DNA of 64,000 bases from Somniosus microcephalus (taxonomy: Eukaryota), in NCBI GenBank assembly GCA_052327205.1, contig CM126212.1, positions 201,252,001 through 201,316,000 on the forward strand, written 5' to 3'. The notes below the pieces were generated by a model. That model was given only the letters and a program-made list of their open reading frames with translations. It did no database searches and was not told the DNA's origin. Positions 2,885 through 55,056 of this stretch are shown one piece after another (the first letter of the stretch is position 1; each line of letters opens with the position of its first letter). The translations under genes and the position numbers were made by a program.

Positions 2885-4140
2885 CTACATAGGATATACA
2901 GCACAGAAACAGGCCATTTGGCCCAACCAGATTATACTCCTCTTGAGCCTCCTCCCATCTTTCCTCATCTAACTCTATCAGCATGACCCTCTATTCCCCT
3001 CTCCCTCATATGCTTATCTAGCCTCCCCTTAAATGCATCTATACTATTTGTTTCAACCAGTCCCTATGGTAGCGAGTTCCACATTCTCACCACTCTTTGG
3101 GTAAAGAAGTTTCTTCTGAATTCCCTTTTTGATTTCTTGGTGACTATCTTATATTGATGGCCTCTAGTTTTGCTCTTCCCCACAAGTGGAAACACTCTGG
3201 GCTGGATTTTCATTGAGGAGGCGTGTAGGAGCGGGACTACAACTTTCGGGGTTGTAGTCCCGCCTCCATCGAGTTGTAGCCAACCCATGCAATTTTGACT
3301 TGATTGACCTTGTTGAGCCCGCCCAGCCGGCTCAGCAGGCCAATTAAGGGCCACCCGGCAACAGGTGACATCACAGATTGTCATTTCATCTGTCAAGACC
3401 TTTTGACAGATGAAATATCAGCTTTCGACAGCTGTTTGAAGCTGTCAAACACTGACAATCTGTACTCCAGGTTAATTCCTTCCTCTCAGGCTGATTTAGA
3501 GATCTCTCCGGAACAGAAAGCTGAATGCTGCAATTTTTGACAGATCACGGCCATTCTGCTTTCTGTGCCGGTGAGATGAGGGACTCCCGAGACCTGAAGG
3601 AAGGAAGGCTGTAAAGATAAGTAAAACTTCTTTAAACACTTTACACACACCCAACACACTTACCTCTGCACTCATGCACCCATCACTCACCTGAACACCG
3701 GGCATCTCGAACCCTCCAAGTCCTTCAGCCTGACGGCCCGCCTCGCTAACTTGGCGTGGTTTGGAGCCATCGGGAATCCCACACTTCACCAATGAAAATA
3801 GGAATTAGGTTAAAAACTGCCTGTTAACTACCTGTTAACAGGCAGTTAATTGACACTAATCCCCTTCCCGCCTCGGGGAGGCGGGTCCCAGCGCGGGTCA
3901 GGTACCTGCCTCCTTTGAAACTGGCATGGGGGCGGGATGGGTTCGTGCCCCCCCCCCCCCCAATTTCAGGATTTTAACCCCCCACACGCCTCCTATCTCG
4001 CCTCCACTGCCCAAACCCTGCCCTCTGTATCCACTCTCAAAACCTTTCATAATTTTAAAGACCTCTATTAGGTCACCCCTCATATTTGTCTTTTCAAAAG
4101 AAAAGGGACCCAGCCTGTTCATCTTTTCCTGCTAGGTATA
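2885..4140 (-). mobile_element. CR1 LINE 3' fragment interrupted by a MITE
   Basis: Minus-strand peptides RGDLIEVFKIMKGF and KTRGHQYKI...RRNFFTQRVVRMWNSLP flank the insertion at 3199-4023. Confidence 0.8.
3199..4023. mobile_element. Non-autonomous DNA transposon (PIF/Harbinger-like MITE)
   Basis: Imperfect TIR GGGCTGGATTTT...AAACCCTGCCC; 3-bp TSD TCT (3196-3198, 4024-4026); splits a CR1; body similar to 32950-33798. Confidence 0.75.
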
Positions 4141-5946: not shown

Positions 5947-6252
5947 GTAAGAGATAAGACAGTACTGTTCTTGCAGATTATTTTCTGTAGATGTTTGTGG
6001 TTTTCTTTCAGAATTCAGAATACAACTAAATACATATTTGATTAATTGTATCCTGTCCCAAAAAATATTTGAAGTTCACAGTAAAAGTAATTATTTATAA
6101 TTATATATGTAGTGAATAGCCTGGAGATTTGCTGCACTGTTTAACTCTAACTCACGTTTTCTCCCTTTTTGTATAATGCTGCATCTTATGGTGTCCCAAT
6201 AAGCAGTAGATCCAGATTTGTACAGCAAAATTTGGTAATGGTGTACAGAAAA

Positions 6253-7308
6253 TTCATTACTGGGATGTGGACGTCACTGGCAAGGCCAGCATTTATTGCC
6301 CATCCCTAATTGCCCTCGAGAAGGTGGTGGTGAGCCACCTTCTTGAACTGCTGCAGTCCGTGTGGTGAAAGTACTCCCATAGTGCTGTTAGTAGAGAGGG
6401 AGTTCCAGGATTTTAGTGGAGGGAGTGAATGTTTAAGGTGGTGGATGGGGTGCCAATCAAGCAGGCTGCTTTGTCCTGGATGTTGTTGAGCTTCTTGAGT
6501 GTTGGAGCTGCATTCATCCAGGCAAGTGGAGAGTATTCCATCACACTCCTGACTTGTGCCTTGTAGATGGTGGAAAGGCTTTGGGGAGTCAGGAGGTGAG
6601 ACACTCACCCCAGAATACCCAGCCTCTGGCCTGCTCTTGTGGCCACAGTATTTATGTGGCTGGTCCAGTTAGGTTTCTGGCACTTGTGTGGCGTGAATGT
6701 TACTTGCCACTTATCAGCCCAAGCCTGAATGTCATCCAGGTCTTGCTGCATGCAGGCATGGACTGCTTCATTATCTGAGGAGTTTCGAATGGAACTGAAC
6801 ACTGTGCCATCATTAGCGAACATCCCCACTTCTGACCTTATGATGGATAGAAGGTTATTGATGAAGCAGCTGAAGATGATTGCACCTAGGACACTGCCCT
6901 GAGGAACTCCTGCAACGATGTCTTGGGGCTGAGATGATTGGCCTCCGACAACCACAACCACCTTCCTTTGTGCTAGGTATGACTCCAGCCAGTGGAGAGT
7001 TTCCCCCTTGATTCCCATTGACTTCAATTTTACTAGAGCTCCTTGATGGCACGCTCTGTAAAATGCTGCCTTGATGTCAAGGGCAGTCACTCTCGCCTCA
7101 CCTCTGGAATTCAGCTCTTTTGTCCATGTTTGGACCAAGGCTGTAATGAGGTCTGGAGCCAAGTGGTCCTAGCGGAACCCAAACTGAGGATCGGTGAGCA
7201 GGTTATTGGTGAGTAAGTGCCGATGACACCTTCCATCACTTTGTTGATGATTGAAAGTAGACTGTTGGGATGGTAATTGGTTGGATTGGATTTGTCCTGC
7301 TTTTTGTA
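6253..7308 (-). mobile_element. 5'-truncated, internally deleted copy of the LINE at 37853-41140
   Basis: ORFs 6605-7162, 6413-6604 and 6306-6608 are near-identical to segments of the 765-aa RT ORF; same 3' end (HHHLLEGN*, gggatgggcaataaatgctggcc). Confidence 0.9.
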
Positions 7309-10059: not shown

Positions 10060-10915
10060 TGAAGGTTGACTAGGGTAGTGCGGTTGATGTTGTTGTGTAT
10101 ATGGATTTTCAAAGGCGTTTGATAAAGTACTACATAATAGACTTGTTACGAAGCGATTCATTTTGGTAGGAAGAATGAGGATTGGCAATATAAACTAAAT
10201 GATACAATTTTAAAGGGAGTGCAGGAACAGAGAGACCTGGTGGTGTATGTACACAAGTCTTTGACGGTGGCAGGACAAGCTGAGAAGGCTGTTAAAAAGA
10301 CATACAGGCTCCTTGGCTTTATAAACAATGCATAGAGTACAGAAGCAAGAATGTTATGCTAAACCTTTATAAAACACTGATTAGGCCTCAGCTGGAGTAT
10401 TGTTTCCAATTCTGGGCACCGCACTTTAGGAAGGAGGTCAAGGCCATGGAGAGGGTGCAGAGGAGATTTACTAGAATGGTACCAGGGATGAGGGACTTCA
10501 GTTATGTGGAGAGACTAGAGAAACGGGTTGTTCTCCTTGGAGTAGAGAAGGTTAAGGGGTGTTCAAAATCATGAAGGGTTTTGATAGAGTAAATAAGGAG
10601 AAACTGTTTCCAGTGGCAGAAGGTTTGGTAACCAGAGAACATAGGTTTAAGGTGATTGGCAAGAGAACCAGAAGGGACATGAGCAAAATAAACGACACAG
10701 CAAGTTGTTCTGATCTGGTGTGCACTGCCTGAAAGGGCGGTGGAAGCAGATTAAGTAGTAACTTTCAAAAGGGAATTGGATAAATACTTGAAGTTGAAAA
10801 ATTTACAGGGCTTTGGGGAAAGAGCAGGGGAGTGGGACTAATTGCATAGCTCTTTCAAAGAGCCGGCACAAGCACGATGGGCCCAATGACTTTCTGTGCT
10901 GTATCATTCTAAGAT
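10060..10915 (+). mobile_element. CR1 LINE RT/3' fragment
   Basis: LNLYKTLIRPQLEYCFQFWAPHFRKEVKAMERVQRRFTRMVPG; CR1 3' tail gagccggcacaagcacgatgggcc. Confidence 0.85.
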
Positions 10916-31378: not shown

Positions 31379-32290
31379 AAATGAAGTACACAATACCGCT
31401 GGATCAGTTTCATTTAAGTGTAAGATATTGTGATATAATTTGCTTTATAATTTATGCAGTGTGCCTATAATCTTCATCCATTCTACTGCTTAAAGCAGAA
31501 AAGTCACCCGGTCTGGATGGGATGCATCCTAGGTTACTGAGGGAAGTGAGGGTGGAAATTGCAGAGGCTCTGGCCACAATCTTCCAATCCTCCTTAGATG
31601 TGGGGGTAGTGCCAGGGGACTGGAGGATTGCAAATGTTACACCCCTCTTCAAAAAAGGGGAGCATAATAAACCCGGCAACTACAGGCCAGTCACCTTAAT
31701 GTCGGTGGTGGGGAAACTTTTAGAGACAGTAAGCCGGGTCAAAATTAATTGATGAAAGTCAGCATGGATTTGTTAAAGGCAAATCGTGTTTGACTAACTT
31801 AAAAAATTGAGTTCTTTGATGAAGTAACGGAGAGGATTGATTAGGGTAATGTGGTTGATGTTCAAAAGTGTTTGACAAAGTACCACAATAGACTTGTAAG
31901 TAAAATTAAAACCCATGGGATTAAAGGGACAGTGGCAGCATGGATACAAAATTGGTTAAGGGACAGAAAGCAGAGAGTAGTGAAGAGTTGTTTTCAGACT
32001 GGAAGGAAGTATACAACGCTGTTCCCCAGGGGTCGGTATTAGGACCACTGCTCTTTTTGATATACATTGATGACCTGGACTTGGGTATACAGGGCATAAT
32101 TTCAAAGTTTGCAGATGAAACAAAACTCTGAAATGTGACAATAAATGAGGAGGATAGTAACAGACTTCAGTATGACATAGACAGTCTGATGAAATAGGCA
32201 GACACGTGGCAGATAAAATTCAACGCAGAGATGTGTGAAATGATTCATTTGGTAGGAAGAATGAGAAGAGGCAATATAAACTAAATGGTA

Positions 32291-32814
32291 CAGGAAACAC
32301 CGACGGGACCAGGATGGTGTCGGTTGATCAAAAATTCTGGATGACGGAGAGGGTTATCTACCGAGGCTATTTTTAACAAAGAAAAATTTTAAAAATAAAG
32401 AAATGTGCAGTATACAGTAATTGGGTACTCACCTACAGAATGTTGTGTTAAATGGATGGTGGAAGATGCTTGATTAAGAACAGTCCTGCCAGTTGAGGGT
32501 AATGCAATGCAATGACTACCAGCAGCATGGGAGACACAGTACCCCTGTAAAATGGCGGATCAGAAGAGACTACCGGCAGCGCGGGAGAGTCAGACTCCTG
32601 TTACAGGGGTTTTGAGGTGTTCCGACTTCCGACCGCGCCAAGAAGCCGAGTAGTGGCAGTTTGGAGAACTACCCCCACTGACTAACTCGGCCACCGCGGG
32701 AGACTCGGACTCGGCAACATTGCCGGTTATTGAGGTGTTGTTTGCGGAGTGAGAATTTTGCCGGTTAACAGAGAATTCCGGATATTTAGGTGCCATTTAA
32801 ACGAGAGTTTCCTG
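32291..32814. mobile_element. Tc1/mariner (pogo/Tigger-like) non-autonomous element
   Basis: TA|CAGGAAAC...GAGTTTCCTG|TA; removing it and one TA restores the CR1 sequence aaatggtacaattt. Confidence 0.8.
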
Positions 32815-33798: not shown

Positions 33799-35099
33799 AT
33801 AGAGTTCAAAAGCAAGCAAGTTATGCTGAACCTTTATAAAACACTGGTTAGGCCTCAGCTGGGGTATTGTATTCAATTCTGGACACCACACTTTAGATTG
33901 GATGTAAAGGTGTTAGAGAGGGTACAGAAGAGATTTACTAGAATGGTACCAGGGGTGAGGGACTTCAGTTTTGTGGAGAGATTGTAGAAGCTGGGGTAGT
34001 TCTCCTTAGAGCAGAGAAGGTTAAGAGAAGATTTGATAGGGGTGTTCAAAATCATGAACAGTTTTGATGGAGTAAATAAGGAGAAACTGTTTCTAGCGGC
34101 CGAAGGGTCAGTAACCAGAGGACACAGATTTAAGGTGCTAGGCATAAGAACTAGAGGCGACATGAGGAAAAAAAATATGCAGCGAGTTGGGATCTGGAAT
34201 GTATTACCTGAAAAGGTGGTGGAAGCAGATACATTAGTAACTTTCAAAAGGGAGTTGGATAAATACTCGAAGGAAAAAACGTTTCAGGGCGACGGGGTCA
34301 GAGCTGGGGCATGGAACTAATCGGATAGCTCTTTCAAAGGCCCGGCGCAGCCACTTTGGGCTAAATGGCCTCCTGTGCTGTATCATTCTGTTTGTAGATC
34401 TGGGGGTGGTGAATCATCTTGTGGTCCATGGCAATCTTTCTGTTAAAGATCTGTGTGTTTAAACCCCTAGATCTCTGTTCCTTCGCTATTGGGAATTTTA
34501 CCTGGTTTATCCCAAAATGTACTACTTTACATTTATTTGCATTTGCTACATTTCTGCCCACCATCTATTCCGCCCAGGTCATCTTGCAATTTTTTAGTTT
34601 ACCATTTTGATACTTTCAACAAATTCTGATATTCTCTCTACACCCATATCCAAATGATATGTATAGGGGCAGACAAAGACAGTTACAGGAAGAGACAACT
34701 TTAATATTTTTAGCCATGAGTACCACAATAAATCAACTAGTTAATTTAAAAAAAGGAAAAAAATGCACAGCAATGGAAGCCTTAATGATGCTATAGTTTC
34801 TGAAAGATGGGTGGTAGCAGTTAAGATTCCTTTCGAGTGTTGCAAAAAAAATAGAACAGAATAGATGCATGAAATCCAAAACTAAAACACAAGGATTGTT
34901 CTTAAAAAAAAATCATTGGTCAGAAATGTACAACTCACAAGTAGGTGCATTAATACTGTTTCACAATTCGTCTGCACCTTCTGTCGATGCATTTAATAAA
35001 AGGCAGTTATTGGAAGAAGGAGGCAATATTTTTGTGCACAATAATGGAATCCTTAATGATGCTATAGGTTCTGAAATGTGGGTTTTGTGGGGGGGTGAG

Positions 35100-36780: not shown

Positions 36781-37092
36781 GTTTTAGAAAAAAAGGCATT
36801 CTAAATTGAAGCCTTTTGGGTGCACATGGCCCTCAATTTTACTGCATTGGTGTGAAGCCATTTTTCATGTGCCACTGAGATAAAGTGTGCAGTGTAACTA
36901 GAATTCAGTTGTTTGGTATCTTGTATCATGTACAAGACCATCTAGAAGAGGTGCAAATTGCCTATTCTATAACTACAGTTGACACAGCATTGGTACAAAA
37001 CCACTCCACAAGCCTGGGTGTAACATTTTGATATAAACTGATGAGTGCCCAGCAAACCAATCCAAATGGCAGCAGTTGTTATCCATGCTCTA

Positions 37093-37294
37093 TTTTTATT
37101 TATTCATTCATGGGATGTGGGCATCGCTGGCAAGGCCAGCATTTATTGCCCATCCCTAATCGCCCTTGAGCAATTGCTGCAGTCCATGTGGTGAAGGTAC
37201 TCCCACAGTGCTGTTAGGTAAGGAGTTCAATTAGGTAGGATTTTGACCCAGGAACGGCGATATATTTGCAAGTCAGCATGGTGTGTGACTTGGA
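37093..37294 (-). mobile_element. 3' fragment of the same LINE family as 37853-41140
   Basis: ttcatgggatgtgggcatcgctggcaaggccagcatttattgcccatccctaa is the reverse complement of that LINE's tail. Confidence 0.8.
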
Positions 37295-37852
37295 TGAAGT
37301 TGTAATGGTTCACAAAGGCAGATTGACTGGTGACAGTTATGTCAAGGAACATAGTTAACAGTTAATGCTGTTAATGAATTGTAATTAGATTAGCCAAGTA
37401 GATAAAACAATAAGGCAGAGAAGAAAGTTAAGTGTGCAGGGGGGGGGAGAGGGTGTGTTTTCCTGAGACAAAATGCTTTTGCAGGTGCCTTAGGATGTTT
37501 TTATTGCATTAAAGGTGCTATATAGATGCAAGTTGTTGCATTCGAGCATGTAACTTGTCTTCATAGTGCTGGGCCTCTGACAGAGGTCAGTGAGCATATC
37601 ACAAGATGATAAATAAGCCAATATGAGAATGGAGTGATATACAAGAGTACAACAAAGCAACAGACTAGAATCAGCTTCTTTTTTTAGATATGAATAGATT
37701 TAAAGATTTTTGTTTCGTTCATTAAGTTCTTCCAGGTTTAGTTTCCAGAAGTCTGCTTACTGATTCGAGTGCTTGAGCTTTCCTCCTTTGGTAAGCACTT
37801 GCTATAACAACAAAGCACAATTCATAAGTAGGCGTAGAATGTTTATTATACT

Positions 37853-40800
37853 GGGGAGGCGGTGGCGTAGTGGTTATGTCACTAGACTAGTAAGCCAGAG
37901 GCTCAGTCAAATGCTCTGAGGATATGGGTTCAAATCCCACCACGGCAGCTGGTGGAATTTCAATTCAATTCAATTTAATTCTGGAATTAAATGTTAGTCT
38001 TAGTAATGGCGACCATGATACCATTGTCGATTGTTGCAAAAACCCATCTGGTTCACTAATATCCTTTAGGGAAGGAAATCTGCCGTCCTTACCTGGTCTG
38101 GCCTACATGTGACTCCAGACCCACAGCAATGTGGTTGACTCTTAATGCCCTCTGAAATGGCCTAGCAAGCCACTCAGTTGTAAACAACCGCTACGAAAAA
38201 CAATAAGAATAAAAAAACCGGATGGACCACCCGGTATTGACCTCGGCACCGGAAACGACAACGGCAAACCCAGCCCTGTCGACCCTGCAAAGTCCTCCTT
38301 ACCAACATCTGGGGGCTTGTACCAAAATTGGGAGTGCTGTCCCACAGACTAGTCAAGCAACAGCCTGACATAGTCATAATTACCGAATCATACCTTACAA
38401 CCAATGTCCCAGACACCACCATCACCATCCCTGGGTATGTCTTGTCCCACCGGCTGGACAGACCCACCAGAGGTGGTGGCACTGTGGTATAGAGTCGGGA
38501 GGGAGTAGCCCTGGGAGTCCTCAACATTGACTCAGGACCCCATGAGGTCTCATGGCACCAAGTCAAACATGGGCAAGGAAAGCGCCTGCTGATTACCACC
38601 TACCGCCCTCCCTCAGCTGATGAATCAGTACTCCTTCATGTTGAACACCAATTGGAAGAAGCACTGAGAGTAGCAAGGGCTTCAATGTCCATCACCAAGA
38701 GTGGCTCGGTAGCACCACAACTGACCGAGCTGGCCGAGTCCTAAAGGACATAGCTGCCAGACTGGGTCTGCAACAGGTGGTGAGGGAACCAACAAGAGGG
38801 AAAAACCTACTTGATCTCGTCCTCACCAATCTACCTGTTGCAGATGCATCTGTCCATGACAGCATTGGTGGAAGTGACCACCGCACAGTCCTTGTGGAGA
38901 CAAAGTCCTGTCTTCATGTTGAGGATACCCTCCACCGTGTTGTGTGGCACTACCACCGTGCTAAATGGGACAGATTTCCAACAGATCTGGCAACTCAAAA
39001 CTGGGCATCCATGAGGCGCTGTGGGCCATCAGCAGCAGCAGAATTGTATTCAACCACAATCTGTAACCTCATGGCCCGGCATATCCCTCACTCTACCATT
39101 ACCATCAAGCCGGGAGATCAACCCTGGTTTAACGAAGAGTGCAGGAGAGCATGCCGGGAACAGCACCAGGCATACCGAAAAATGAGGTGTCAACCTGGTG
39201 AGGCTACAACACAGGACTACTTGCATGCCAAACAACGGAAGCAACATGCGATAGACAGAGCTAAGCGATCTCACAACCATCGGATCAAATCAAAGCTCTG
39301 CAGTCCTGCCACATCCAGTCGTGAGTGGTGGTGGACAATTCAACAGTTAACAGGAGGAGGAGGCTCCAAAAATATCCCCATCCTCAATGATGGTGGAGCC
39401 CAGCACGTGAGTGCAAAAGACAAGGCTGAAGCATTTGCAACTATCTTCAGCCAGAAGTGCCGAGTGGATGATCCATCTCGGCCTCCTCCTGAGGTCCCCA
39501 GCATCACAGATGCCAGTCTTCAGCCCATTCAATTCACTCCACGTGATGTCAAGAAACGGCTGAAGACACTGAACACTGCAAAGGCTATGGGCCCTGACAA
39601 CATTCCGGCAATAGTACTGAAGACTTTTGCTCCAGAACTAGCTGTGCCCCTAGCCAAGCTGTTCCAGTACAGCTACAACACTGGCATCTACCCGGCAATG
39701 TGGAAAATTGCCCAAGTATGTACTGTCTACAAAAAGCAGGACAAATCCGATCCGGCCAATTACCGTCCCATCAGTCTACTCTCAATCATCAGCAAAGTGA
39801 TGGAAGGTGTCGTCGACAGTGCTATCAAGCGGCACTTACTCAGCAATAACCTGTTAACTGACGCCCAGTTTGGGTTCCGCCAGGGCCACTCAGCTCCTGA
39901 CCTCATTACAGCCTTGGTCCAAACATGGACAAAAGAGCTGAACTCGAGAAGTGAGGTGAGAGTGACTGCCCTTGACATCAAGGCAGCGTTTGATCGAGTG
40001 TGGCATCAAGGAGCCCTAGCAAAACTGAAGTCAATGGGAATCAAGGGGAAAACTCTCCATTGGTTGGAATCATACCTAGCACAAAGGAAGTTGGCTGTGG
40101 TTGTTGGAGGTCATTCATCTCAATCGCATGACATCACTGCAGGAGTTCCTCAGGGCAGTGTCCTAGGCCCAACCATCTTCAGCTGTTTCATCAATGACCT
40201 TCCCTCCATCATAAGGTCAGAAGTGGGGATGTTCGCTGATGATTGCACACTGTTCAGCACCATTCGAGACTCGTCAGATACTGACGCAGTCCGTGTCCAT
40301 ATGCAGCAAGACCTGGACAACATTCAGACTTGGGCTGACAAGTGGCAAGTAACATTTGCACCACACAAGTGCCAGGCAATGACCATCTCCAACAAGCGAG
40401 ACTCTAACCATCTCCCCATGACATTCAATGGCATTACCATCGCTGAATCCCCCACTATCAACATCCTGGGGGTTACCATTGATCAGAAACTGAACTGGAC
40501 CAGCCATATAAATACTGTGGCTACAAGAGCAGGCCAGAGGCTGGGAATTCTGCGGCAAGTGTCTCACCTCCTGACTCCCCAAAGCCTTTCCACCATCTAC
40601 AAGGCACAAGTCAGGAGTGTGATGGAATACTCTCCACTTGCCTGGATGAGTGCAGCTCCAACAACACTCAAGAAGCTCGACACCATTCAGGATAAAGCAG
40701 CCCGCTTGATTGGCACCCCATCCACCACCTCCAACATTCACTCCCTCCACCACCGGTGCACTGTGGCTGCAGTGTGTACCATCTACAAGATGCACTGCAG

Positions 40801-41140
40801 CAACTCGCCAAAGCTCCTTCAACAGCACCTTCCAAACCCGCGACCTCTACCACTTAGAAGGACAAGGGCAGCAGACGCATGGGAACATCACCACCTACAA
40901 GTTCCCCTCCAAGCCACACACCATCCTGACTTGGACCTGTTTCGCCGTTCCTTCACTGTCGCTGGGCCAAAATCCTGGAATTCCCTTCCTAACAGCATTG
41001 TGGGTGTACCTACACCATATGGACTGCAGCGGTTCAAGAAGGCGGCTCACCACCATCTTCTCAAGGGCAATTAGGGATGGGCACTAAATGCAGGCCTAGC
41101 CAGCCAGCGACGCCCACATCCCATCAATGAATTAAAAAAA
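37853..41140 (+). mobile_element. Near full-length non-LTR retrotransposon (CR1/Jockey group) with a tRNA-derived 5' head and a single APE-RT ORF
   Basis: A box TGGCGTAGTGG (37863), B box GGTTCAAATCC (37927); APE motifs from ~38290 (NIWGL, ITES, YRPP, SDH); RT ORF 38777-41074; A-rich tail; ATACT at both flanks (37848-37852, 41141-41145). Confidence 0.9.
38777..41074 (+). CDS. LINE ORF2 (end of endonuclease plus reverse transcriptase); 765 aa open, upstream endonuclease part disrupted
   Basis: [48 protein letters not shown]; upstream TAG at 38490 and a frameshifting deletion at ~38680. Confidence 0.9.
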   Translation: MVREPTRGKNLLDLVLTNLPVADASVHDSIGGSDHRTVLVETKSCLHVEDTLHRVVWHYHRAKWDRFPTDLATQNWASMRRCGPSAAAELYSTTICNLMARHIPHSTITIKPGDQPWFNEECRRACREQHQAYRKMRCQPGEATTQDYLHAKQRKQHAIDRAKRSHNHRIKSKLCSPATSSREWWWTIQQLTGGGGSKNIPILNDGGAQHVSAKDKAEAFATIFSQKCRVDDPSRPPPEVPSITDASLQPIQFTPRDVKKRLKTLNTAKAMGPDNIPAIVLKTFAPELAVPLAKLFQYSYNTGIYPAMWKIAQVCTVYKKQDKSDPANYRPISLLSIISKVMEGVVDSAIKRHLLSNNLLTDAQFGFRQGHSAPDLITALVQTWTKELNSRSEVRVTALDIKAAFDRVWHQGALAKLKSMGIKGKTLHWLESYLAQRKLAVVVGGHSSQSHDITAGVPQGSVLGPTIFSCFINDLPSIIRSEVGMFADDCTLFSTIRDSSDTDAVRVHMQQDLDNIQTWADKWQVTFAPHKCQAMTISNKRDSNHLPMTFNGITIAESPTINILGVTIDQKLNWTSHINTVATRAGQRLGILRQVSHLLTPQSLSTIYKAQVRSVMEYSPLAWMSAAPTTLKKLDTIQDKAARLIGTPSTTSNIHSLHHRCTVAAVCTIYKMHCSNSPKLLQQHLPNPRPLPLRRTRAADAWEHHHLQVPLQATHHPDLDLFRRSFTVAGPKSWNSLPNSIVGVPTPYGLQRFKKAAHHHLLKGN

Positions 41141-42734
41141 ATACTTGCAGTAAACCTGTACATAAGGCCACATTAAAAGGAGCAAAAAGTATGATTTGTT
41201 CATATTCTAATTTTTGATAGTTCCTGCCTATTTTACCCACAAATCCAAAAGCTGGTATCCAGAGGAATATAATATCTATTTTATTTGAACCTTGGCAAGT
41301 AGATTGGATGTATATTCAAAACTCATCTAATCATTTATTTTTTTAATAAAACAAATGTTTCTACTTAAAGGTTTACATTTTCATGCTGGATTTTTACACT
41401 TTTTTTGTTGCAGCTTTCACTCATTTTTTAAAACTAGTTTAATAGAATTGGGACTGCAGGGTAAGATGGTTGTTGCTATTCCTTAAGAGTAAAATATTGG
41501 ATTTTACCTTGCAGAACCTGTAGGTGTGGTCTGTTGAGTGTGCAATACTTTTTTGCATTGTGGAATTAATCATTTTATGCCTTTTATATAATATAAGTAC
41601 AATCCAAACTGCTGGAACAATAAAAAAAAATGAAAAAATAAGCACACTCATTGTAAAAACACTAAAGGGTAGAAAATCCAATTGATGTATTGTCTGTTTT
41701 AGAAATATTTCTTGGTAAATATTCTAGCATTGGCAAGGATATGTGGCTTGGTGGCAATTATGAACAAGAAATGTTAGGAATTATAAAAATACATTTAAAA
41801 CTGTATTTTTTCCCTCAAACCTTTACCACTATGCACAGTGTTATAAAGCATGTGGATTCCACAGAGCATCTGGGTTCGGAAACACTGAAGCTGTGCCAAA
41901 AGACTTCAAAGCCTGAATGGCTTTGGCACATAAAAATAACATGAAACCAGTGGAAAATAGTAGTGTAGACATGACATTTATTTTTAGCTTCTCTCATTGA
42001 GAGTCACAAAAGCAAAAAAATGTTGCAATACAGTTGCTTGGAGTAAAGTAAATGCATAAATTATTTATCAAAAATGATCCAGGTAACTTGGATGCAGATA
42101 CAGTGGACTTGGATTAGAGCACCTTTCTCCTAATTATTTTAGTGTAAAATAATTTAACAAAAAAAACTCCCACAAGCTAAGCAATTCTGAAATGTGGTCC
42201 GGTAACAAAGGCAGGTAGTGTTCAGCTTTATAACTCAATCCACTTTGGTACAAGCAAAACTTAGCAAAAAATAAGGTGCCAGAAAACATATTTGTTGCCA
42301 TTTTGCAGTTACTGTTTATATAAGTGTGTACATGATTTTTAGAAGTATGAATGAATATTTAAAATGCATAAGTGTGTCATAAATAAAATAGTTCTTCATT
42401 TAGAATGTATTCTAAATTAATTGGTGTCAGATAAATGTTACATTTCAGAGATGGAATAAGCACAATATGCAATACATGCAGATATTTGTGGACACATTAC
42501 AACTTGAGGCTGTATTAATATAGGCTACAGGTACTTCTTATAAAACAATCAGCTAGCCCTCCGCCAACATGCATACATTCTAAACTGCTCCAGAAAGAAA
42601 ACTTAATGATGCCAAACGGATACTTGCCAGTTTTAAACCTTAGCTTTCCCTAAGGACATATGAACAGCTTATATTTGACTTTTTATGTGAAAGCATAATA
42701 ATGTTGAATTAAATATGAATGCTTGATATAGCAC

Positions 42735-54499: not shown

Positions 54500-55056
54500 T
54501 CATAGTATGGTTACAGCACAGAAGGAGGCCATTGAGCCCGTGCCGGCTCTCTGCAAGAGTACTTCAGCTAGTCCCACTGCCCCGCCCTTTCCCTGTAGCC
54601 CTGCAAATTCTTTTCCTTCAGGTACTTGTCCAGTTCCCTTTTAAAAGCCATGATGATTGAGTCTGCCTCCACTACCCTTTCAGGCAGTGCATTCCAGATC
54701 CTAACCACTCACTACGTAAAAAAGTTTTTTCTCGTGTCGCCTTTGGTTCTTTTGCCAATCACCTTAAATCTGTGTCCTCTGGTTCTCGACCCTTCCGCCA
54801 CTGGGGACGGTTTCTCTCTATCTACTCTGCCTAGACCCCTCATGATTTTGAACACCTCTATCAAATCACCTCTCAACCTTCTCTGCTCTAAGGAGAACAA
54901 CCCCAGCTTCTCTAATCTATCCACGCAACTGAAGTCCCTCATCTCTGGAATCATTTTTGTAAATCTTTTCTGCACCCTCTCTAAGGCCTTTACATCCTTC
55001 CTAAAGTACGGTGTCCAGAATTGGACATAATACTCCAGTTGAGGCCGAACCAGTGT
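54500..55056 (-). mobile_element. CR1 LINE 3' fragment
   Basis: TLVRPQLEYYVQFWTPYFRKDVKALERVQKRFTKMIP...RGDLIEVFKIMRG. Confidence 0.9.

Follow-up and report, generated by a model that had tools for sequence, protein, structure and literature searches.

A tRNA-headed CR1-Zenon LINE without ORF1 in Somniosus microcephalus: avoidance of T-runs, missing early AUG and a candidate RNA polymerase III promoter

Architecture of the element in the window

A stretch of 64,000 nt of the Somniosus microcephalus genome (assembly GCA_052327205.1, contig CM126212.1, positions 201,252,001 to 201,316,000 of the forward strand), here called the window, contains a disabled copy of an abundant, autonomous long interspersed element (LINE) of sharks and rays. 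The element is a CR1-Zenon LINE without the first open reading frame (ORF1), and its family was formerly or recently active. From 5' to 3' it consists of a tRNA-Gln-derived head with type-2 RNA polymerase III (Pol III) promoter motifs, a leader of ~330 nt, one open reading frame (ORF) for an apurinic/apyrimidinic endonuclease (APE) and a reverse transcriptase (RT), a stem-loop and a short A-rich tail (Table 1). An earlier sequence-only reading of the window had located the A and B boxes, the ATACT 5-mer flush with both element ends and the missing space for ORF1 between head and APE-RT frame, all of which were confirmed by direct reading.

The window copy is 1.25% diverged from the consensus of 30 young copies. 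Comparison with this consensus bore out both lesions reported before, the TAC>TAG change at 38490-38492 and the deletion at ~38680, which removes 23 nt after 38680, shifts the frame and loses GD of the GDFN motif, and added a CGA>TGA change at 38238-38240.

Table 1. Features of the disabled CR1-Zenon copy, in positions of the window
Feature	Position	Strand	Basis
5-bp flank repeat ATACT, possible target-site duplication, 5' copy	37848..37852	+	Direct reading; weak evidence
tRNA-Gln-derived head, type-2 Pol III promoter motifs	37853..37950	+	tRNA-Gln alignment, boxes kept
A box of head	37863-37873	+	Direct reading
B box of head	37927-37937	+	Direct reading
Near-invariant non-coding leader block, kept in LINE and SINE-like deletion products	38037..38182	+	Subfamily comparison
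Candidate non-AUG start element, predicted hairpin (38152-38177) plus GCT	38152..38192	+	Minimum free energy folds, variation pattern
7-nt anticodon-like loop; AGC could pair with in-frame GCT (38190-38192)	AGC 38164-38166	+	Pseudoknot by eye
Single ORF, broken in window copy	38184..41074	+	Consensus comparison, dN/dS
APE endonuclease within ORF	about 38292-38890	+	
RT within ORF	about 39740-40480	+	
3' stem-loop common to SINE-like derivatives; likely RT recognition site	41074..41122	+	Predicted fold
Short A-rich tail	41131..41140	+	Direct reading
5-bp flank repeat ATACT, possible target-site duplication, 3' copy	41141..41145	+	Direct reading

Copies in the genome and integration as a unit

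The 6.4-Gb genome of S. microcephalus was searched and the best 40 of 8,017 candidates were scored. The head-to-endonuclease junction was spanned at 95-97% in all 39 other scored matches, and 29 of the 39 retrieved loci were full length from the head through APE and RT to poly(A), with 28 independent 5' flanks (two loci shared one) and with starts within a few bases of the tRNA 5' end. Exact-pattern searches, the counts of which are lower bounds, found at least 1,120 head-to-APE joins, 3,565 APE-start motifs, 8,055 body motifs and 117 tight head-to-tail joins. When the first 30 loci were chosen solely by the APE-start motif, 19 reached the head and 11 were 5'-truncated inside the leader; upstream flanks of the latter had no common in-register sequence and no shared alternative 5' end, and three of these loci sat in another common repeat at differing offsets (by eye). 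The sequence-only reading had set against its own proposal a head present solely as a free short interspersed element (SINE) and LINE copies with an ORF1; the head was not restricted to free SINEs, and no ORF1-bearing form was seen among the loci examined. A second consensus was derived from 40 older copies (80-89% to the young consensus); it is 92% identical to the young one and has the same head and an open frame of 973 codons.

The integration of head and LINE as one unit, proposed earlier from the single copy, is established by copy number and not by a target-site duplication (TSD). Flank duplications of the family were no longer than those of shuffled flank pairs (mean 3.48 versus 3.38 nt, 29 rows), which reach 5 nt or more in about 17%, so the shared ATACT carries little weight as evidence of integration, and a TSD was rejected as proof of unit insertion. 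That the two parts are chance neighbours, a free SINE having landed before a 5'-truncated ordinary LINE, would agree with the weak flank match and with the surplus of short head-plus-tail forms over LINE-length forms (16 versus 7 among the first 30 body-motif loci). This explanation was refuted, and its probability is negligible, because the same junction recurs in the exact joins, in young and old subfamilies and in seven published consensuses, and because the short forms keep LINE coding pieces at varied breakpoints.

The 5' flank is shared within each of two pairs, L038/L069 (C9) and L045/L058 (C3), which are local or segmental duplications after insertion. On the minus strand, the window holds a 5'-truncated, internally broken older-subfamily copy of the same LINE (6251-7308, 84-93% identical) and an old 3'-end fragment of the family (37091-37304, 70% identical), placed 550 nt upstream of the main element in opposite orientation.

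Identity with elasmobranch Zenon

The published Zenon consensuses (PMC13343379) were compared by eye over the first 400 nt of each row, and over this part the family matches the ORF1-less elasmobranch CR1-Zenon. In the accessible sections of that source, Zenon elements of sharks, rays, coelacanth and hagfish are described as ORF1-less and poly(A)-tailed, vertebrate Zenon is limited to elasmobranchs, coelacanth and hagfish, and elasmobranch Zenon is stated to be absent from repeat repositories. The missing ORF1, previously taken as an oddity, is therefore together with the poly(A) tail a defining trait of Zenon, and the family consensus with its head is already contained in the 2026 supplement of that source. 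The head, leader and linker open all seven elasmobranch Zenon consensuses, and within the first 400 nt the body motif occurs only in these seven rows; two hagfish rows and one coelacanth row have visible 5' ends without this head and contain T-runs. Elements of CarCar, HypSab, RhiTyp, ScyCan and SquAca share the length of ~3.3 kb, the lack of ORF1, APE-RT, poly(A) and the 5' end, with roughly 5 differences in the first 190 nt between SquAca_Zenon-1 and the older consensus. Nothing in the compared 5' end sets them apart from the family described here, and what is new is the reading of the head. A whale shark element termed 'CR1-Zenon like LINE' (bioRxiv 10.1101/443036) was grouped with the same family.

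The term 'tRNA' had 0 matches in the text and supplement of PMC13343379 and 'promoter' 0 in the text, and its accessible sections mention neither T-run avoidance, nor an AUG-less start, nor SINE-like derivatives; the tRNA head and the Pol III signature thus appear unremarked in an already published sequence. A headed autonomous LINE is likewise not described in the accessible parts of PMC10886601, PMC3531059, PMC7245038, PMC3747384 and bioRxiv 10.1101/443036. Literature searches, with Repbase, Dfam and subscription papers outside their scope, retrieved no description of a headed or Pol III-transcribed LINE. Ruminant BovB, the ends of which carry SINE pieces, is presumably a partial precedent, which the literature search did not confirm. 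The likeness of the body to a salmonid SINE and the horizontal transfer suggested from it were unsupported, not refuted, no salmonid sequences being among those compared; SalL2 and RSg-1 are listed as salmonid SINE partners in the part of PMC3747384 that was available.

Coding capacity and selection

The stop-to-stop frame measures 970 codons in the young and 973 codons in the older consensus, with the first in-frame ATG at codon 284 and 287, respectively, beyond the endonuclease in both. The lack of an ATG upstream of the endonuclease, noted before for the window copy, was confirmed; it is not peculiar to this copy and represents a trait of the family. The ratio of nonsynonymous to synonymous changes (dN/dS) between subfamilies was 0.17, which indicates purifying selection on the ORF and that both lineages were coding. 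In a sister copy that is nearly intact, Pfam recognised an endonuclease domain and RVT_1, and frames with 950 or more open codons were present in 3 of 30 young copies. With the head on both subfamilies and open, selected frames behind it, the proposal of a SINE-headed autonomous LINE held.

In the RT tree, which contained no named Zenon reference, the element stood apart from the other sampled LINE RTs of its own genome (33-37% identity), and the nearest database RTs were 44-48% identical. A shark protein annotated as aldo-keto reductase (P0012) was 89% identical to 23% of the ORF; it may stem from fusion of a gene model with the element or from exonisation of part of the element.

tRNA-Gln-derived head and promoter boxes

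The head was aligned with tRNA-Gln of the same genome, the only parent tried (321 tRNA-Gln gene pattern matches), with z of 5.3 for the young and 5.8 for the older subfamily, above 1000 of 1000 shuffles. Changes between subfamilies in the A and B boxes are confined to positions that are degenerate in the A/B-box consensus, and the spacer between the boxes diverges. The same pattern of kept boxes and changed spacer was seen by eye in the compared part of the published shark and ray consensuses. ARAGORN and Rfam did not call the head in the window a tRNA and gave 0 calls in 41 loci; a tRNA call on family heads was obtained at 1 of 12 head loci, as tRNA-Thr. A first parent-tRNA pattern had 1,071 matches, and all 100 of those listed were element-like heads; no ribozyme family match was found in the element by Rfam. 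Older copies (e.g., L244 1458-1520) carry a tandem duplication of the anticodon arm in their head; in young copies the second of these arms has drifted.

Among 80 related LINEs from metagenome contigs, many of them 5'-short, no A box and one isolated B-box match were found upstream. Viral contigs contained no relatives, and prokaryote genome contigs had 0 matches to the body motif.

Avoidance of T-runs on the sense strand

Vertebrate Pol III terminates at four or more T. Both subfamily consensuses (3.3 kb) contain 0 sense-strand TTTT and 16 AAAA runs, and TTT is the most depleted of the 64 trimers in both. The 5-mers with at least four T numbered 3 versus 25.5 expected in the young consensus (0.12) and 1 versus 20.8 in the older one (0.05), and the same measure for A, C and G gave 0.87-1.27 of expected. 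Within the ORF there were 7 runs of three or more T versus 15.4 under synonymous-codon shuffling (P 0.0004). The observed/expected ratio of TTTT in copies was 0.07 (young) and 0.19 (older), compared to 1.12 in 70 other LINE fragments. For the T-rich 5-mers, the 80 related metagenome-contig LINEs had a minimum ratio of 0.58 and a median of 1.15, with TTTT in 79 of them, and the minimum among 29 other own-genome LINE fragments of at least 700 nt was 0.45. A partly covered control consensus of another LINE (1,753 nt) had 2 TTTT versus 3.5 expected and 15 runs of three or more T versus 15.6. The T-run controls included LINE fragments of other families in the window (31492-32305, 10183-10790, 33799-34299 and 54607-55056).

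TTTT ahead of any A-run was present in 16 of 61 family 3' tails (e.g., L046, L050, L054 and L132), and generic A-tracts were preceded by TTTT in 5-7%, a count not defined identically to the tail count. The tail TTTT could represent a terminator followed by polyadenylation, or slippage of T adjoining the tail.

Transcription by RNA polymerase II (Pol II) was weighed as an alternative, in which the ancestor captured a SINE head, the promoter would be the conserved leader or host read-through, and the T-run depletion would stem from something else, such as avoidance of splice or premature 3'-end signals. Consistent with it, AATAAA stands ~45 nt ahead of the tail in the older subfamily, lepidopteran Zenon and Persaeus are without a Pol III promoter (PMC6740152, accessible part), and LINEs are generally transcribed by Pol II (PMC5786205, accessible part). 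We consider it rather unlikely, since both boxes persist in sharks and in a ray despite changes in the sequence between them, no comparable T-run depletion was found in other LINEs of the genome or in the 80 relatives, and full-length copies start so close to the tRNA 5' end.

Leader, predicted hairpin and translation start

The leader block has 2 differences in ~145 nt between subfamilies with 19% synonymous divergence (binomial P about 2e-11). The first 310 nt contain 11 ATGs, and in most copies the nearest in-frame one runs into one or two stops; with these upstream ATGs and stops, and no early in-frame ATG, scanning from a cap would be a poor fit under either polymerase. Minimum free energy folds predict a hairpin at the 3' end of the block; AGC occupies the middle of its 7-nt loop, and an in-frame GCT lies 12 nt beyond the stem. 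Own-genome copies differ in the spacer and at the loop position that precedes AGC, and apart from CpG decay they keep GCT. In contigs of four other organisms, no listed variant of the fold region touches the stems, AGC or GCT; those listed lie at the same loop position, within the spacer and at the base directly 3' of GCT, and they strike bases of both in-frame stops. By eye, the published consensuses of 4 of 5 species, whale shark among them, have a frame continuous from GCT to the ORF; for the upstream ATG this holds in 3 of 5. Linker lengths keep the frame in 68 of 99 listed lengths, one of the 100 listed being left out, and in 63 of 86 copies; since copies share masters and the linker has 3- and 6-nt repeats, linker length weakly favours an upstream start and was rejected as proof of it. 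Two copies, L120 and L121 (C1, 0.52 and 3.4 Mb), have a common 12-nt telomere-repeat-like insertion at the predicted start hairpin.

A division of labour would assign the 3.3-kb template to Pol III, hence the lack of T-runs, and the protein to capped Pol II read-through or spliced transcripts, translated by reinitiation after an AUG-GCC-stop micro-frame or by stop read-through, with no internal ribosome entry site (IRES). It is favoured by an in-frame ATG that lies 9 codons ahead of the open frame, has a strong context and is retained in 80 of 86 LINE copies, by the leaky context of a stop followed by CAA, and by ORF2 of L1, which reinitiates without AUG. We regard it as unlikely, given that this ATG is followed by two in-frame stops in 43 of 86 copies and in the young subfamily, that ten ATGs lie upstream of it, and that the whale-shark consensus is out of frame from it (by eye).

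SINE-like derivatives and the 3' end

Automatic classing of the first 30 body-motif loci gave 7 that continue into APE, 16 that jump to the 3' end, one of them ambiguous, and 7 interrupted or broken ones. The short forms differ in their breakpoints, which in older-consensus positions fall at about 290-450 on the 5' side and at about 3065-3250 on the 3' side; many short forms retain LINE linker or ORF-end coding sequence, and one bears young-subfamily marks, others being older. From the varied breakpoints, the kept coding pieces and both subfamily ages it follows that the short forms derive repeatedly from the LINE, in agreement with the earlier idea that an internal deletion yields a SINE. A few junctions recur among the short forms and look like true SINE subfamilies. 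The head itself may have been gained in the ancestor by template-switch capture of a tRNA or SINE RNA.

The 3' stem-loop had a fold z of -1.9 in the young and -3.5 in the older subfamily relative to mononucleotide shuffles, and of 61 tails, 53 had AAAA no more than 30 nt from the 3' end.

Proposed life cycle

Transcription by Pol III together with cap-independent, non-AUG translation is on balance the best and a probable reading of these sequence patterns; the polymerase, the IRES and the start codon are what we infer from them. The 3.3-kb unit would be transcribed end to end by Pol III from the tRNA-Gln-derived head, and translation of the uncapped transcript would begin without an AUG. The near-invariant leader would be where ribosomes enter, probably by means of the small tRNA-mimicking hairpin, the AGC loop of which may pair with the in-frame GCU codon as in domain III of the dicistrovirus IRES. 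By target-primed reverse transcription, the standard mechanism of LINEs, the APE-RT protein would then copy the RNA, beginning at the 3' stem-loop and A-tail. Internal deletions retaining both ends have given ready-made SINE-like repeats many times. The fully specified version, a 3.3-kb autonomous coding LINE of sharks and rays with a Pol III tRNA promoter and a tRNA-mimic IRES at GCU, parent of SINEs by single deletions, is held more tentatively, as possible.

Several observations weigh against this interpretation. The N-terminal extension of the ORF shows no selection (dN/dS 0.9; 7 changes). The absence of TTTT alone is modest (P 0.006-0.06 depending on the composition-aware null), two related consensuses with overlapping windows and mostly T-richer controls amount to few independent observations, and one small LINE cluster of the same genome (2 fragments, 1.8 kb) is likewise without TTTT. 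Conservation of the hairpin is inflated by a sample partly selected on its 3' half, a recurrent variant, also present in 2 LINE-length copies, breaks one stem pair, the pseudoknot has no more than 4-5 pairs with no compensatory change seen, and shuffled sequences fold as well as the 5' 343 nt do (z -0.28). Read from GCT, the SquAca_Zenon-1 consensus falls out of frame. LINEs are moreover defined as Pol II elements and Pol III products as shorter than about 700 nt in the accessible parts of PMC10886601, PMC3531059 and PMC5786205.

Comparison with known systems

In the dicistrovirus intergenic (IGR) IRES, pairing of the anticodon-like hairpin of domain III supports non-AUG, factor-independent initiation, and the geometry and conservation of the shark hairpin would fit this model by analogy. 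R2 and L1Tc, as far as described in the accessible part of PMC6765202, also have a single ORF, uncapped RNA and a structured 5' leader proposed to start translation, and provide a precedent for IRES-like translation of uncapped non-LTR (long terminal repeat) RNA; they are co-transcribed and excised by a ribozyme of the hepatitis delta virus type, whereas the shark element has an internal tRNA-type promoter. The TRIMp3 elements Cassandra, Helenus and Ajax likewise have small-RNA-derived Pol III promoters, but are LTR-type, non-autonomous, 311-1263 bp long and non-coding (PMC10886601, accessible part).

Members of SINE2, such as shark HE1 (partner HER1), share with the family the tRNA head with A and B boxes, the body and a LINE-type 3' tail. 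SINE2 elements are non-coding and shorter than about 700 nt (PMC3531059, accessible part), in contrast to the 3.3-kb shark element with its selected ORF, and only its deletion derivatives are of this kind. Lepidopteran Zenon likewise gave rise to an internally deleted, non-autonomous product with both ends, Persaeus, which has no tRNA homology or Pol III promoter (PMC6740152, accessible part), whereas the shark deletion product was born tRNA-headed. The bipartite-LINE model, in the accessible part of PMC5786205, has the head join a LINE that is deleted beforehand, regards LINEs as Pol II elements and knows ORF-less bipartite forms from RTE, Ingi, Vingi and R2 only; in the shark family the autonomous LINE itself carries the head.

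Since near-intact frames exist in the genome, the polymerase and the start site are open to direct testing. LINEs are held to be Pol II-transcribed and coding, and SINEs Pol III-transcribed and non-coding. Deletion of the middle of a headed LINE gives a SINE origin in one step, the reverse of the published model in which the head is added later. A natural 3.3-kb Pol III messenger, if true, would blur the split between LINEs and SINEs and would illustrate a way in which vertebrates can translate uncapped RNA.

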